A stretch of DNA of 64,000 bases from Alphaproteobacteria bacterium (GTDB lineage: Bacteria; Pseudomonadota; Alphaproteobacteria; RF32; CAG-239): positions 20,749 to 84,748 of the forward strand of contig JAZSBR010000024.1 in the NCBI GenBank assembly GCA_045602545.1, written 5' to 3'. How positions within the stretch are numbered: position 1 is the first letter of the stretch; the number at the start of each line of letters is the position of its first letter. This document shows positions 16,343-51,243 of this stretch, piece by piece. The notes under the pieces were generated by a model, which was not told the DNA's origin, ran no database searches, and was given only the letters and a program-made list of their open reading frames with translations. Both the position numbers and the translations under genes were made by a program.

Positions 16343-16419
16343 TGGCGCGCCCCGGGCGATTCGAACGCCCGACCCACAGCTTAGAAGGCTGTTGCTCTAT
16401 CCTGCTGAGCTAGGGGCGC
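16343..16419 (-). tRNA. tRNA-Arg (anticodon UCU)
   Basis: The reverse complement folds as a cloverleaf. It has acceptor GCGCCCC/GGGGCGC, D arm GCTC..GAGC, anticodon stem ACAGC/GCTGT with loop CTTCTAA, T arm GGGCG-TTCGAAT-CGCCC, and an encoded CCA. Confidence 0.93.
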
Positions 16420-35692: not shown

Positions 35693-36904
35693 TTATTTTT
35701 TGAACGTAATAATCACCGAGTTATTGTTATCATTAGTCAAAACCGCGGTGGCTTCGGCAGGTGTATAACGTTGACGGTCACACCAACCGTCGTTGAGCTT
35801 AAAACTTGCCCCGCAAGAAGACACACACTTCCCCTCTTGCCAATATTTCCCGCTTGCAACACAATCCGCGGCAGAAGTTGCCTGTTCGGAAACTTGAGAG
35901 CCCTGTTGCCCTTGCGGCTCTGATTCAGGAGCGTTTTTTGTGCACTTATTACTTACCCAATAGAATTCTGCACCTTCACAAGATGATTGTGTACTCGGCA
36001 ATTTTACACAGCCATTACTGTAATAATAATTTACTGAATTATTACACTGCGCTTCGGTTGCCTGTTGAACTTTGTTCGCTATAGAACTTCCGTATTTTTC
36101 ACTCAATTTGTTTCTGCAAGTATTAACATCGCCTAAACAAGTAATAATTGAATTTGCATTATTAGTAAAAGCGATACCAAAAGGATCATCACTCCAATTG
36201 TTAACATTTACATCATCGGTTATAATGATATTTGTTAATAAAGGTGAATTATAAAACGCACCATATCCGATTGTTTCCACATTCGGCATATCTACGCTCT
36301 GTAATGAACTTGCAAAATAAAACGCAGTCTGTCCGATTGAAGTAACATTCGGCATATCTACGCTCTGTAATTTACTTGCATCAGAAAACGCATAACTTCC
36401 GATTGAAGTAACATTTGGCATATCTACGCTCTGTAATGAACTTGCAAGTTGAAACGCATAATCTGCGATTGAAGTTACATTTTCCATACCCGTGACACCG
36501 GTTATTTTAGTATCTCCTCTAAAGGCAAATTGTCCGATATTAGTGATACCATCATTAATAACGACAGAGGTTGCTCCTTGTCTTGCCCACGGTGCATCAG
36601 AAGAATATTCTTTTGTATAACCATTTGCGGTATCTGTACCTGGTTCTGTTGCATTAAAATCCTTCATCACCACATTTGTATAGGGCTTGTTATTTGAGTC
36701 AAGCGCCGGCGTAATAGTTAAAACTTTTTCGGTTTTATCGTTATTAGTGACTGTTGTAATTACCCAACAACAATTTACTCCGCAATAATCACTATTGCTT
36801 GCATCATCTGAACCTCGTGTACCGTTCTGACAGGTCGCCCACGATTCGCTTGCTGCACCAAAAGACATTATTGCCACACTTGCCATTAAAATAAATTTAT
36901 TCAT
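35693..36904 (-). CDS. BspA-type leucine-rich repeat (LRR_5) surface protein with Cys-rich N- and C-terminal regions
   Basis: It has a signal peptide and repeats of the form SLQSVDMPNVTSIGxxAFxxAS. Its C-terminus is Cys-rich. Confidence 0.8.
   Translation of the reverse strand: MNKFILMASVAIMSFGAASESWATCQNGTRGSDDASNSDYCGVNCCWVITTVTNNDKTEKVLTITPALDSNNKPYTNVVMKDFNATEPGTDTANGYTKEYSSDAPWARQGATSVVINDGITNIGQFAFRGDTKITGVTGMENVTSIADYAFQLASSLQSVDMPNVTSIGSYAFSDASKLQSVDMPNVTSIGQTAFYFASSLQSVDMPNVETIGYGAFYNSPLLTNIIITDDVNVNNWSDDPFGIAFTNNANSIITCLGDVNTCRNKLSEKYGSSIANKVQQATEAQCNNSVNYYYSNGCVKLPSTQSSCEGAEFYWVSNKCTKNAPESEPQGQQGSQVSEQATSAADCVASGKYWQEGKCVSSCGASFKLNDGWCDRQRYTPAEATAVLTNDNNNSVIITFKK
36281..36478. repeat. 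Three near-identical 66-bp (22-codon) tandem repeats inside the LRR gene
   Basis: Units start at 36281, 36347 and 36413, each beginning ATT(C/T)GGCATATCTACGCTCTGTAAT. Flanking units are more diverged. Confidence 0.85.
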
Positions 36905-37228
36905 TATATTTTCCTTTCTTTAAAATTAAATTTTCAATACGAAAAAGCCCTCTGTTTTTTACAGCGGGCGGGGAGTTCAGAAATCATGTTTAGCGAAATG
37001 ACTATTATAGCCTTTAGCTTAAAATAAAGCTTGTACATACGCTATAATCTCCCCAACCAATGCGGGGAATTAGATACAAAAAAACAGCATCCAAAGGATA
37101 CCGTTATTTCAGGTATCGCTAAACAAAGAGCCTCTGACAGCCCCGAACCCGAAGGTCCTGAAATGGTGTTTCACCATTCTATCTATAAGTTAGCAGAAAA
37201 AATCAAATTTGTAAAGCAAAAAGTAAAA
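36905..37228 (-). promoter_or_regulatory. Structured ~290-nt leader (riboswitch/attenuator-like) between rsmA and the LRR gene
   Basis: It contains multiple hairpins, a discontinuous closing helix whose 3' strand abuts the terminator, and alternative pairings. A possible promoter TTTACA-N17-TAACTT lies near 37190-37215 on the minus strand. Details are in the findings. Confidence 0.45.
36941..36969 (-). terminator. Intrinsic terminator 37 nt upstream of the LRR gene start codon
   Basis: On the minus strand GCCCGCTGT-AAAAA-ACAGAGGGC is followed by TTTTTC. Confidence 0.7.
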
Positions 37229-38065
37229 TTACAAACGCATCGCCTCGGCAAGCAACAGATATTGCTTAGGAGTAAGATTCTCGGCACGCAGGGTTGTTTT
37301 TATGTTTAATTCGTCGCAAATTTTTTCAAAATTTGGTATGCTCTTTAAGCTTTGGCGTATCATCTTTCGGCGCTGTCCGAATGCCATTTCGGTTATTTTT
37401 TCAACCTTTTTTAATGTTTCGGGCGCAATAATTTCCGACTTCGGGCGAAAAAGCAACACGCTTGACCAAATCTTGGGCGCCGGCACAAAACAATTCGGAT
37501 TCAAATCAAAAAGCTTGTCAATATGGTAAACCAATTGCGCTAAAACCGAAATTCTGCCATAACTTTTTGTGTTTGGCTCAGCCATGATTCTCTCGGCAAC
37601 TTCCTTTTGAAACATTAAGGTTAAACTGCTGTAATGCACGATATTTTTCAACCAGCCGATAAGTAACGGCACGGAAATATTATAGGGAAGGTTGCTGACA
37701 ATATGTTTTGGAAAATCAGTATGTTCCGTAAAGTCAAACTTCAAGGCGTCGCCCTCTATAATTTCAAGTTGTTTGCCGACTGTTGATTTTATTTCATTCA
37801 TAATCTCAATGCAACGCGAGTCCATTTCAATCACGGTCAAAAGATGAGGATTCGCCTTCAAAATTGCTCTGGTTAAGCCTCCGGGACCGGGGCCTATTTC
37901 ATAAACATTGGCTTTTGAAAAATCTTTTAAGCCTTGTAAAGCCAATGATGAGCGAATAATTTTGTCGGTAATGTTCATATCGAGCAAAAAATTCTGCCCC
38001 AGTGACTTTTTTGCCAAAAGTCCGTGAGCTTCAACCGTTTCTTTCAAACTCGGCAGTTCCGGCAT
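37229..38065 (-). CDS. rsmA: 16S rRNA (adenine1518/1519-N6)-dimethyltransferase RsmA/KsgA
   Basis: It has KSLGQNFL, the SAM motif EIGPGPGGLT, and NLPYNIS. Confidence 0.93.
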   Translation of the reverse strand: MPELPSLKETVEAHGLLAKKSLGQNFLLDMNITDKIIRSSLALQGLKDFSKANVYEIGPGPGGLTRAILKANPHLLTVIEMDSRCIEIMNEIKSTVGKQLEIIEGDALKFDFTEHTDFPKHIVSNLPYNISVPLLIGWLKNIVHYSSLTLMFQKEVAERIMAEPNTKSYGRISVLAQLVYHIDKLFDLNPNCFVPAPKIWSSVLLFRPKSEIIAPETLKKVEKITEMAFGQRRKMIRQSLKSIPNFEKICDELNIKTTLRAENLTPKQYLLLAEAMRL

Positions 38066-38068
38066 TTA

Positions 38069-39259
38069 TCAAACTTTCTTTTCAATCAAGGCGTGAGAAC
38101 GCAAATTTTGCAAATACTTGTTGGAATATTCTTCCAAACGCTTGTTCATCAGCATTTCTCTGATTTCATTGCGTGATGGCAAAGATTTTGCATCTCTTGC
38201 CGGATTAAAAATCTTTTCCAACTTTAAGATGTAATAATCATTCCCATAGGCAATCGGATTTGAAACCCCGCCTTCTTTAAGCTTCAAAACGGCATTTTCC
38301 AAAGTTTGCGGAAGCTGACCCTTAGTAACCCAACCGAGTCTTCCGCCGTTTTTGGCACTCGGGCTTTGTGAAAACTGCATCGCATAAAGCTCAAAACGCG
38401 GGTCCTGACGAAGATTCTGCGCCAATTCATTAAGACCTTTGGCATCTTTTTTGCTGACCACCAACTCAAGAAGCATAAATTTTTCTTTTTTCATGTCGTC
38501 TTTTATGCTTCCCAAGGCTTTTGTGATGTCATTCTCACCGACATTAGCCACACTATGAGCCTTTGAAGAAATCAATTTATTCCAAGCAATATCGGCAATG
38601 ATTTGGGCGCTCCAAACTTTTGCACTGACCTTTGCACTGTCAAGCATTGATTTTAATTGTCCGGGTTGCAAATTATTTCCTTGTTCAAAACGGCGCACGG
38701 CATCATTGACTTCTTTTTGCGAAACGGAAATGCCGTTTTTCTTAGCCTCTTGAATTTTCAACTTGTCATCAATGGCATTTTGCAAAACTTTTGAGGTAAT
38801 CATTTGTTTTGTTTGGGAATTGTATGGGATTCCGGTGGTCATGATGAAGGCATTGATATGGCTTTGCATATCGGCGCTTGTAATCGGATCGCCGTTGACA
38901 AGCGCATAAATTTTCAGCTGATTTCCGTATAGTGTTATCGGTCTTAATGCTTCAGCCGCACGTCTTTGAGCTTCTTGTTCGGCGCGTATGCGAGCCTCTT
39001 CTTCCGCTTGGCGACGCATCATTTCTTCTTGTTGTTTGCGCATTTTTATGGCATTTTCGCGGCGAACTTCAATTTCTTTCTTTTCCGCATCTGATAATTG
39101 GCGATATTCTTCGGCATTGCGACGAAACAATAAAGAGCCTGATGCTTGAGATTGTTCTCTGGCTTCGGCATCCATTTCCTGCAGATTAACTTCTTCTGCT
39201 TTTGCAAAATCAAGATTAAAGAAAATTGCCAAGACGATAATCAGCCAAATTTTTTTCAT
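38069..39259 (-). CDS. surA: SurA-like periplasmic chaperone / parvulin PPIase
   Basis: It has a signal peptide, a SurA_N-like region and a C-terminal parvulin motif (NGGRLGWVTKGQLPQTLENAV...GVSNPI). An unusual E/R/Q-rich coiled-coil insert lies near the N-terminus. Confidence 0.7.
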   Translation of the reverse strand: MKKIWLIIVLAIFFNLDFAKAEEVNLQEMDAEAREQSQASGSLLFRRNAEEYRQLSDAEKKEIEVRRENAIKMRKQQEEMMRRQAEEEARIRAEQEAQRRAAEALRPITLYGNQLKIYALVNGDPITSADMQSHINAFIMTTGIPYNSQTKQMITSKVLQNAIDDKLKIQEAKKNGISVSQKEVNDAVRRFEQGNNLQPGQLKSMLDSAKVSAKVWSAQIIADIAWNKLISSKAHSVANVGENDITKALGSIKDDMKKEKFMLLELVVSKKDAKGLNELAQNLRQDPRFELYAMQFSQSPSAKNGGRLGWVTKGQLPQTLENAVLKLKEGGVSNPIAYGNDYYILKLEKIFNPARDAKSLPSRNEIREMLMNKRLEEYSNKYLQNLRSHALIEKKV

Positions 39260-50499: not shown

Positions 50500-51108
50500 A
50501 TGAAAAAGATTTTATTGTTGGCCGGTGTGGCTTGTGTTTTGAGCGCTAATGCTTTTGCTATTGATTTGAACCCGTATGTTGCCGCAAAGGCAAAATATGC
50601 TTTTGCTCGCAACACAATAAAAGTGACCGGTGTAAATGAAGGCAAGGCAAAATTTAATGATAATGTTTGGGGAGGTTCTATTGCCATCGGTAATACAAAC
50701 CCTCTTATTGACGGCGCATTGCGTTTTGAGCTTGAATATACCAAAAATGCCGATGCCGAGAAAAGAAATGTAAAAGTTAAAACTCAGGCTGTTTTGTTGA
50801 ACTTCTACTATGATATTGATTTGAAAAACAACATGCCTTTGACCCCATACATTGGTGCAGGTTTCGGTTGGGGACAATCCGAATTCAAATTTAAGCACGG
50901 TCATACCAAAGAAGATGGTGTTTCTATGCAAATCGGTGCCGGTGTTAACTACAAAATCTGCAACAATACCAGCATTGATTTCGGTTATCGTTATATGACC
51001 TATGGTGATTTTGATAAAGAATATCGTATTCCGGGAACTTATTATGAAAAGCGTGATTACAAACCACGCGCTCATGAACTCTTGCTCGGTGTAAAATACG
51101 ATTTCTAA
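50500..51108 (+). CDS. Small outer-membrane beta-barrel protein (OMP_b-brl family)
   Basis: It has a signal peptide ending NAFA, a beta-strand pattern, and the C-terminus GVKYDF. A terminator follows at about 51134-51160. Confidence 0.75.
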   Translation: MKKILLLAGVACVLSANAFAIDLNPYVAAKAKYAFARNTIKVTGVNEGKAKFNDNVWGGSIAIGNTNPLIDGALRFELEYTKNADAEKRNVKVKTQAVLLNFYYDIDLKNNMPLTPYIGAGFGWGQSEFKFKHGHTKEDGVSMQIGAGVNYKICNNTSIDFGYRYMTYGDFDKEYRIPGTYYEKRDYKPRAHELLLGVKYDF

Positions 51109-51243
51109 TACGATAACGTAAAATACGAAAGAAAAAACCGGACGCTTTGTTCGGTTTTTTTTGGTATTATTTTCAAATGAATTGTTGATTTTTTTTAATA
51201 TGCAAGCTACCTTATGGGAGTTAAAAGAAAGGAAAATTTACTG

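Follow-up and report, generated by a model that had tools for sequence, protein, structure and literature searches.

A conserved structured RNA, a putative transcription-attenuation leader, upstream of hypervariable surface LRR_5 genes in uncultured gut or rumen Alphaproteobacteria

The intergenic region between rsmA and the LRR_5 gene

We analysed a 64,000-nt stretch (hereafter the window) of contig JAZSBR010000024.1 from an uncultured gut or rumen alphaproteobacterium, whose rsmA has its best match at 71% identity among 185,579 species representatives. On the minus strand of the window a non-coding gap of 324 nt separates rsmA from a gene for a BspA-type leucine-rich repeat (LRR) protein of family LRR_5, with an N-terminal signal peptide (...SESWA). 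The initial annotation of this gap, made from the sequence alone, had described it as a riboswitch- or attenuator-like leader ending in a terminator; its gene calls and boundaries (rsmA stop at 37229, LRR ATG at 36904) agree with the gene calls and Pfam matches. The gap holds a folded RNA of about 235-240 nt (37180-36942, minus strand, ~239 nt) that is preceded by a conserved promoter pattern, ends in an intrinsic terminator and recurs upstream of LRR_5 genes at non-syntenic loci. The features of the locus are listed here from 5' to 3' of the minus strand (CM, covariance model; MFE, minimum free energy fold).

37229-38065, minus: rsmA (PF00398, E 5e-49), context only, outside the element
37210-37216, minus: putative -35 box, CTTTAC / TTTACA; CTTTAC is invariant in all seven loci
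37187-37195, minus: putative extended -10 box, TGc TAACTT, 6 nt before the conserved AGAAUG
37180, minus: predicted transcription start, the A of AGAAUGG; strong conservation and the CM match begin here (model position 1)
37161-37179, minus: H1, 5'-terminal hairpin GAAUGGUG-AAA-CACCAUUU (MFE)
37145-37158, minus: H2, hairpin GGACC-UUCG-GGUUC (MFE), abutting P1a without a linker
37118-37144, minus: P1, 5' strand, consisting of P1a GGGG, P1b UCAGAGG-C-UC and P1c UGUUUAGC; pairs with 36970-36994
37073-37117, minus: Ha, outer helix GAUAC (37113-37117)/GUAUC (37073-37077) around an inner hairpin (37086-37105) and U7 (37078-37084)
37050-37068, minus: Hb, hairpin UCCCC-GCAUUGGUU-GGGGA (MFE)
37004-37048, minus: Hc, helix AUUAUAGC/GCUAUAAU with the internal loop GUAUGUACA (37032-37040) / AAAG (37012-37015) and a variable inner hairpin
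36995-37003, minus: J5, single-stranded junction AGUCAUU(UC); AGUCAUU is invariant in the five close sequences
36970-36994, minus: P1, 3' strand, GCUAAACA-U-GA-UUUCUGA-ACU-CCCC; pairs with 37118-37144
36942-36969, minus: T, intrinsic terminator, GCCCGCUGU-AAAAA-ACAGAGGGC plus U5, abutting P1a and ending 37 nt before the ATG
36905-36941, minus: A/U-rich spacer of 37 nt with a Shine-Dalgarno (SD)-like AAGGAA at 36911-36916
35693-36904, minus: BspA-type LRR_5 gene (PF13306, E 3.8e-25; 403 aa), the presumed regulated gene

Homologous copies and their linkage to LRR_5 genes

A search of a collection of 5.8 billion proteins with RsmA led to two close relatives, 96% and 94% identical (contigs L081 and L082/L083), whose intergenic regions carry the RNA at 87% and 78% identity. 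By the same route the LRR protein led to four homologues for which contigs were obtained, and in all four cases the RNA was found upstream of the gene on the same strand, in the following settings.

L145: rsmA upstream, syntenic with the window; RNA identical to that of L082
L147: behind mutL, in the same metagenome assembly as L145; nhmmer E 8e-83
L148: behind a different upstream sequence; nhmmer E 6e-52
L146: behind apaG/DUF525; diverged, recognised by the CM over the full model length (33.4 bits, E about 1e-8)

Relatives of the RNA in these six contigs thus comprise four further distinct sequences (71-87% identical) and one diverged sequence (L146). The copies of the window, L081, L082/L083 and L145 stand behind rsmA, and each of the seven copies lies upstream of a BspA/LRR_5 gene on the same strand. 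The upstream neighbours (rsmA, mutL, apaG, other) are not constant, and the RNA thus travels with LRR_5 genes rather than with rsmA. The diverged copies of L145 and L147 represent two loci of one metagenome assembly, each of them before an LRR gene. The initial annotation had called for homologous leaders before LRR/BspA genes to be sought, and the searches by BLASTN, nhmmer and CM did find them at several non-syntenic loci.

The same three methods failed to detect the element downstream of rsmA at 80 loci of GTDB species representatives (best 71% identical). The rsmA relatives of 76-79% identity (L084-L089, L143, L144) are followed by short unrelated regions in which the RNA was not found and, overall, relatives in the range of 63-79% identity have other, shorter downstream regions without it. 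No second leader copy emerged from a self-similarity search of the window, no match to the RNA was obtained by BLASTN against plasmid and phage collections, and no relative of the LRR protein was found in IMG/VR. An exact 18-mer (ACCTTCGGGTTCGGGGCT) had 24 matches in JGI metagenome contigs, all of them by chance in unrelated, mostly G+C-rich sequence; a 16-mer had 29 matches in IMG/VR, none similar beyond the seed. A gapped motif pattern gave four matches in IMG/VR, which were rejected as phage coding sequence that the CM does not recognise. The CM itself has a weak partial match in the window (51122-51231, plus strand; 17.9 bits), which fits the terminator-like Ha part of the model; we dismissed it as a second leader copy, this being an ordinary intrinsic terminator (AAAAACCGGACGCUUUGUUCGGUUUUUUUU) after an open reading frame (ORF) at 50500-51108.

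The leader is better conserved than the gene that follows it: identities are 71-87% among the RNAs and, over the full length, 28-47% among the LRR proteins. The extreme case is the pair L082 and L145, with 100% identical leaders (236 nt) and LRR N-terminal regions that, as far as a comparison is possible, are only ~41% identical, which suggests that the LRR bodies may have been recombined, or replaced under diversification, behind a fixed expression site. The signal peptides of these two genes (L082:1117-1839 and L145:2228-3421) are similar, and the LRR coding sequence diverges right after them.

Fold of the leader RNA

The predicted RNA has an MFE of -89.9 kcal/mol, as compared with -59.6 ± 4.5 kcal/mol for 200 dinucleotide shuffles (z = -6.7; none of the 200 folded as well), and its complement is less stable by about 20 kcal/mol. 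Both this difference and the many conserved G-U pairs place the RNA on the strand of the LRR gene. Its architecture consists of the two 5' hairpins, a long interrupted closing helix P1 (GGGG/CCCC, UCAGAGG/UUUCUGA and UGUUUAGC/GCUAAACA) around a four-way junction carrying Ha, Hb and Hc, and the terminator; each homologue, when folded singly, adopts the same arrangement. The four-way junction domain accounts for ~175 nt. The terminator abuts P1a and H2 without any linker nucleotides, so that H2, P1a and T form a three-way junction, and the 5' and 3' ends of the RNA are not paired with each other.

Most of the helices drawn in the initial annotation were recovered in the MFE, namely both 5' hairpins, the closing helix, UCCCC/GGGGA (Hb) and UUAUAGC/GCUAUAA with a nested AGCUU/AAGCU (Hc). 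It had placed three hairpins inside the closing helix, of which the latter two stand and GAUACC/GGUAUC does not: this hairpin can be drawn but is weak (-0.7 to -5.3 kcal/mol), and it is superseded in all homologues by the distal closure GAUAC/GUAUC together with a separate inner hairpin.

Invariant nucleotides are found in several parts of the fold. In the five close sequences these include the UUCG loop of H2 (its stem varies between G-U, A-U and G-C pairs), the CCCC/GGGG stem and the loop UGG of Hb, the paired segment GGCUC/GAUU of P1b and the internal-loop bases of Hc (G186-T191, C193, A194 and A211-G214, i.e. GUAUGU.CA / AAAG). The AGUCAUU of J5 has its counterpart in AGCCAUU of L146, as aligned by the CM. 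The inner hairpin of Ha (GGUAUCC-UUU-GGAUGCU) is followed by the invariant U7 tract; its outer helix is predicted for every close homologue, with a compensatory change in L148 (GGUAC/GUACC). H1 shows one G-C to A-U exchange in L081 and L147 and a U-G wobble in L146, where it is the best-conserved part of the diverged element; H2 is absent from L146.

Covariation

RNAalifold analysis of the five distinct close sequences yielded 78 pairs, 21 of them with compensatory changes on both sides. A CM was built from this five-sequence alignment, and six sequences were realigned to it. In the resulting alignment, which is fitted to the model and represents only six sequences of one lineage, 31 of 76 pairs change on both sides and 95.0% of the 421 cells hold standard pairs; after a shift of the partners by 1-3 columns this share drops to 41-46%, and 500 column shuffles never reached any of the five measures. 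The changes on both sides affect 11 of the 17 pairs of P1b/P1c and, in Hc, four of eight outer and four of six inner pairs. The clearest case is P1c, whose sequence is almost wholly different in each homologue and still complementary over 8-11 bp. The 5' leader therefore contains a conserved, covarying structured domain of the kind generally required of riboswitches, and the structured RNA that the initial annotation had proposed holds up in the relatives by both conservation and covariation.

A conserved promoter pattern before the leader and a terminator at its end

The pattern CTTTAC-N17-TGnTAAnnT stands at a fixed distance from the conserved 5' end of the RNA. The spacing (17 nt, then 6 nt to AGAAUG) is identical in all seven loci with flanks that are unrelated in some of them, and CTTTAC, 17 nt before the -10 box, is kept even in L146-L148, where the sequence further upstream is unrelated. 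The form TG-n-TA...T occurs in the six close loci (window, L081, L082/L083, L145, L147, L148); L146 has TAATCT and no TG. The putative leader promoter resembles the alphaproteobacterial sigma-70 consensus, CTTGAC-N17-CTATAT. A generic promoter scan did not list it, as its -10 box fits only three of six positions. Transcription would start at about 37180, 7 nt past the -10 box, judging from the position of these boxes and the onset of conservation.

The canonical terminator that the initial annotation had seen 37 nt before the ATG is present at 36969-36942. Folded alone (36947-36969 plus U5) it reaches -12.5 kcal/mol, three of the seven pairs of its stem change on both sides, and its G+C-rich hairpin is directly followed by a U-tract, which is kept in the homologues as a run of 3-6 U in six of the six distinct sequences (after one G in L081). 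Such a conserved U-tract would not be needed by a plain structural helix.

The SD sequence and the ATG follow 37-41 nt past the terminator at every locus except L148 (98 nt), which leaves little room for a promoter in the gap, much as the initial annotation had argued. The sole promoter-like match in the spacer of the window is TTGAAA-18-GAAAAT (9 of 12 positions), from which transcription would start at the ATG and skip the SD sequence. This match is absent from L081 and L147, and no conserved promoter was found between terminator and ATG. Given a conserved promoter before the leader and no conserved one in the spacer, transcription of the LRR gene most probably starts at the leader promoter and must pass the terminator; the core of the earlier reading, i.e. 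that the LRR gene is transcribed through the terminator, thus most probably survives and is strengthened by the non-syntenic loci.

A second, weaker terminator-like element lies inside the leader, where the hairpin AACGGUAUCC-UUU-GGAUGCUGUU is followed by a U-run (37078-37105); it corresponds to the Ha inner hairpin, which a terminator scan of the window lists at 37105-37083. This hairpin of 7-10 bp with its invariant U7 is present in all five close sequences and absent from L146. The five close sequences give folding energies of -14.3 to -19.0 kcal/mol for Ha and of -9.4 to -12.8 kcal/mol for its portion through the U-run. Ha with its U7 may act as a pause site or as a first, weak terminator or attenuator.

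Several loci show a further open frame after the terminator. In L148, L081, L147 and L146 (L148:539-740; L081:1184-1370; L147:2501-2690; L146:2176-2510) it opens with a Lys/Asn/Glu-rich stretch (MKKNENKE, MFEIKNNEKRK, MKNLKNEKNK and MYNRNEIKNK, respectively). In L148 and L081 this frame crosses an inverted-repeat insert of ~120-180 nt (in L148, GTCATTGCGAGGA...TCCTCGCAATGAC); the real signal-peptide ATG is located inside the 3' arm of the insert in L148 and ~40 nt past the 3' arm in L081. L147 and L146 have a comparable upstream stretch, and the window locus has no inverted-repeat insert.

Alternative pairings

The initial annotation had proposed mutually exclusive folds, in which GGGGAG (37049-37054) pairs with CUCCCC (36970-36975). 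This pairing exists, and in L082, L083 and L145 the double change to GGGGUG/CACCCC keeps it while breaking the U-A closing pair of Hb. On the other hand, the alternative helix competes with Hb and P1a and requires the loss of P1b/c; the terminator is not involved. The related proposal of an aptamer plus expression platform is supported in part: the structured leader, its covariation, the terminator and the link to LRR genes are all borne out, but P1 and the terminator are adjacent, so that no classic platform is evident.

A different alternative emerged from folding with the 3' arm of the terminator removed. The MFE of four of the five close sequences and of L146 then sequesters the 5' arm of the terminator in an extended or slipped P1, in which it pairs with the 3' strand of H2 or the 5' strand of P1a, and this arrangement is better than the H2-intact fold by 1.3-6.7 kcal/mol. 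As an antiterminator, the extended P1 is structurally possible but statistically unconvincing for the window group (see below).

Relation to known RNA families

Comparison of the whole window with Rfam 15 (4227 CMs) revealed only a tRNA (16346-16419) at the gathering threshold. At E <= 10, the 701-nt region around the element gave only six weak matches, all far below gathering scores: partial ones to rli60, SNORA63, SraG, DdR1 and HOXB13-AS1_2, and a full-length but very weak one to CRISPR-DR50. Nor did anything reach the threshold inside the element in L081, L082, L146, L147 and L148, where the best match was sRNA-Xcc1 (30 bits versus 53). ARAGORN found no transfer-messenger RNA (tmRNA) in the window, and no such RNA was found described in full-text literature searches on BspA/LRR proteins with riboswitches or RNA motifs or in two discovery papers of the Breaker laboratory. 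The initial annotation had seen by eye no fit to the TPP, cobalamin, SAM-II, c-di-GMP or fluoride motifs, which is in line with the Rfam search, where no family matched the leader in the window or its homologues.

Individual candidates were rejected as well. For 6S RNA, tmRNA, signal recognition particle RNA and RNase P RNA there is no Rfam match at E <= 10, the fold is not one of their family-specific ones (such as the 6S rod with its central bubble, or a tRNA-like domain with a tag ORF), and the present element occurs in two diverged copies in one metagenome assembly. For a T-box leader, no GGGUGGNACC-type motif occurs in any of the six leaders, nor does Rfam report a T-box. For a leader of the RfaH/ops or Nus/boxA kind, neither ops (GGCGGTAG) nor boxA (GCTCTT(T/A)A) is present; one half of boxA has a likeness in the invariant GGCUCU, which however forms base pairs in P1b. 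A search of the leaders for CsrA-like GGA loops gave no support. Overall, the leader RNA most likely represents a previously undescribed RNA family of a known kind.

Among known systems, the lysine, cobalamin and SAM-I riboswitches, which terminate transcription by way of multi-helix junctions, are similar in many respects: a 5' leader on the strand of the gene, a P1 enclosing a multi-way junction, covarying helices, conserved nucleotides in junctions and internal loops, a terminator just before SD sequence and ATG, and diverged copies before related genes (here at two loci of one metagenome assembly). The leader differs from them in that it matches no Rfam model, its P1 and terminator are adjacent rather than overlapping with no conserved antiterminator found, the genes concerned encode surface LRR proteins rather than metabolic or transport functions, and its distant relative lacks the junction core.

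The c-di-GMP-I and -II riboswitches, too, are structured leaders and act through terminators on genes for surface proteins or adhesion; in Clostridioides they control adhesins. The initial annotation accordingly overstated how unusual such control of an adhesin-like gene would be. Unlike these riboswitches, the leader has no GEMM-I or GEMM-II match at E <= 10 in the 700-nt search, and it has a four-way junction of ~175 nt.

Antitermination leaders of the RAT/LicT, ANTAR, PyrR, put and EAR types share with the present one an RNA structure that adjoins or abuts the terminator, as well as an alternative helix with the 5' arm of the terminator that is near-isoenergetic before the 3' arm is made and that a bound factor could stabilise. 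These elements are much smaller (about 30-120 nt). Neither ANTAR-like dual hexaloop hairpins nor ops, boxA or T-box motifs were found in the leader, and there is no match to EAR, which we take to be an Rfam family; no candidate binding protein was identified in the neighbourhood of the leader. With the Listeria riboswitch-derived small RNAs SreA and SreB the terminated leader would share the form of a discrete, stable RNA of ~235 nt with a 5' hairpin and a 3' terminator, which might additionally work in trans; the comparison is a functional analogy only.

Gene context

In the window, surA and lptD precede rsmA, and a convergent Mla/ABC operon follows the LRR gene. The end of surA directly adjoins rsmA with no pdxA between them (38065-38069), as it does in L084-L089 and L143-L145. 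The arrangement in E. coli is lptD-surA-pdxA-rsmA-apaG-apaH, which differs from the surA-rsmA order of the window lineage; in L146, apaG alone stands upstream of the diverged RNA copy. A tRNA-Arg gene (anticodon TCT; 16343-16419, minus strand) is the sole Rfam or ARAGORN match in the 64 kb.

Interpretation and alternatives

The reading that we favour, by a modest degree of confidence, is that of a new cis-acting transcription-attenuation leader placed before hypervariable surface LRR_5 genes of uncultured gut or rumen Alphaproteobacteria. The region 37216-36905 (minus strand) would form one transcription unit of promoter, leader, built-in terminator and the SD sequence and ATG of the LRR_5 gene. 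Most transcripts would by default end after ~235 nt at the terminator, which stacks on P1a and H2 in the linker-free three-way junction; LRR mRNA would be made only when some signal, be it a small molecule, a protein or another factor, acts on the leader and permits read-through. Conditional termination and the dependence of the LRR gene on read-through are predictions of this reading. A candidate route of escape is the extended P1, in which the 3' strand of H2 (CGGGUUC) would pair with the 5' arm of the terminator (GCCCG) and which is the MFE as long as the 3' arm of the terminator is not yet available.

That the leader is specifically a small-molecule riboswitch is only a tentative proposition. 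A gene for a surface LRR protein gives no hint of a metabolite as ligand, and a classic rearrangement driven by a ligand and a factor that stabilises the extended P1 or acts on RNA polymerase are equally likely.

Several observations speak against conditional attenuation. The search for an antiterminator by folding gave none that is convincing, P1 and the terminator abutting without overlap; for the window group, a fraction of 0.24-0.35 of shuffled terminator arms allow an extended-P1 pairing at least as good as the real one, and the same test is marginal for L148 (0.04) and L146 (0.056). When the full-length RNA is folded, the terminator state has an advantage of 8-9 kcal/mol for the five close sequences and of 4 kcal/mol for L146, and H2, with its stable UUCG loop, forms first during transcription. 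L146 keeps H1, P1, J5 and the terminator with a different interior, contrary to what one would expect if the four-way junction held a conserved ligand pocket. A weak promoter in the A/U-rich spacer could also contribute to transcription of the LRR gene. Finally, with only five close sequences and a distant one, all from a narrow lineage, the conservation of the junctions could in part reflect limited divergence.

Among the alternatives, the one that survives best, though we hold it to be unlikely, is a stand-alone small RNA (sRNA) gene of ~235 nt, acting in trans or binding a protein, that was duplicated together with LRR genes; the latter would then owe their transcription to a weak spacer promoter or to incidental leakage past the terminator. 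Stable small RNAs typically have a 5'-terminal hairpin and a 3' hairpin with a U-tail, as the leader RNA does, and this explanation also accommodates its own conserved promoter, a strong terminator that is integrated in the fold through the three-way junction with H2 and P1a, the failure to find a significant antiterminator, and the fact that L146 best keeps the 5' hairpin and the outer scaffold instead of the junction core. What argues against an sRNA is the position of all seven copies directly upstream of LRR_5 genes on the same strand despite differing upstream neighbours, and the SD sequence and ATG that follow within ~40 nt of the terminator in six of the seven loci with no conserved promoter between. 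The occurrence of two diverged copies in one metagenome assembly, each before an LRR gene, is likewise the pattern of a cis-regulator and not of a trans-acting sRNA.

We consider it improbable that the leader is a constitutive 5' untranslated module without any sensing, in which the 5' hairpin would stabilise or insulate the mRNA and the terminators would damp a strong promoter. The conservation of H1 even in L146, the lack of an evident switch and the thermodynamic dominance of the terminator state would all agree with such a module, but stabilisation or damping would call for much less structure than a four-way junction of ~175 nt whose junction and internal-loop nucleotides are invariant and whose helices show heavy compensatory change.

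Attenuation by a leader peptide, where a ribosome starting behind the SD-like GGGGAG (37049-37054) at the invariant AUG of GUAUGUACA would block formation of the terminator, appears very improbable. The frame does reach the 5' arm of the terminator or end within a ribosome footprint of it in the window, L081, L082 and L148, and likewise in L147, there by way of a UAAUG overlap of stop and start. However, the ORF varies in length from 5 to >50 codons and is shifted in frame midway in L082; the helices change by compensatory and not by synonymous substitutions; the SD-like motif is weakened in L082, to GGGGUG; and Hb and Hc enclose both this motif and the AUG. By our own estimate, A/U-rich sequence would by chance fairly often contain open frames of such a size. 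An attenuator of the trp, his or pyrBI type was rejected on the same grounds, neither length nor frame of the ORF being conserved. In the window the frame has 36 codons (MYKLYFKLKAIIVISLNMISELPARCKKQRAFFVL; 37036-36936, minus strand) and runs from the invariant AUG of Hc, 10 nt past GGGGAG, through the terminator; we judge it a by-product of nucleotide conservation.

The least credible alternative is that the region is merely the 3' untranslated region and terminator of the lptD-surA-rsmA operon, unrelated to the LRR gene (one of the conditions under which the initial annotation would have given up its own reading), which the non-syntenic copies contradict: the RNA is indeed downstream of rsmA in the window, L081, L082/L083 and L145, but the same RNA stands behind mutL (L147), apaG (L146) and another upstream region (L148), rsmA relatives of 63-79% identity lack it, and it has a conserved promoter of its own.

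Implications

Large covarying structured RNAs outside the known families are uncommon, and each one that was validated revealed a new ligand, partner or control logic. The known distribution of the attenuation leader proposed here is narrow (five distinct close sequences and one distant relative), which limits confidence. It precedes the most variable surface proteins of an uncultured gut lineage that is experimentally almost unstudied. It is conceivable, albeit doubtful, that the leader founds a new class of riboswitches or other ligand- or factor-sensing leaders dedicated to hypervariable BspA-type LRR genes, through which a signal from the gut or a second messenger would govern the display of proteins that bind a host or partner; such a class may use two terminator-like elements in series, Ha with U7 and T.

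If the RNA is a sensor, it would point to the signal that decides on the display of LRR proteins that probably bind host or partner cells, and ligands could be screened against a compact RNA of about 175-240 nt. Should it prove to be a stable small RNA instead, this lineage would have a new, abundant RNA species. In both cases, the RNA family can now be searched for with a covariance model.

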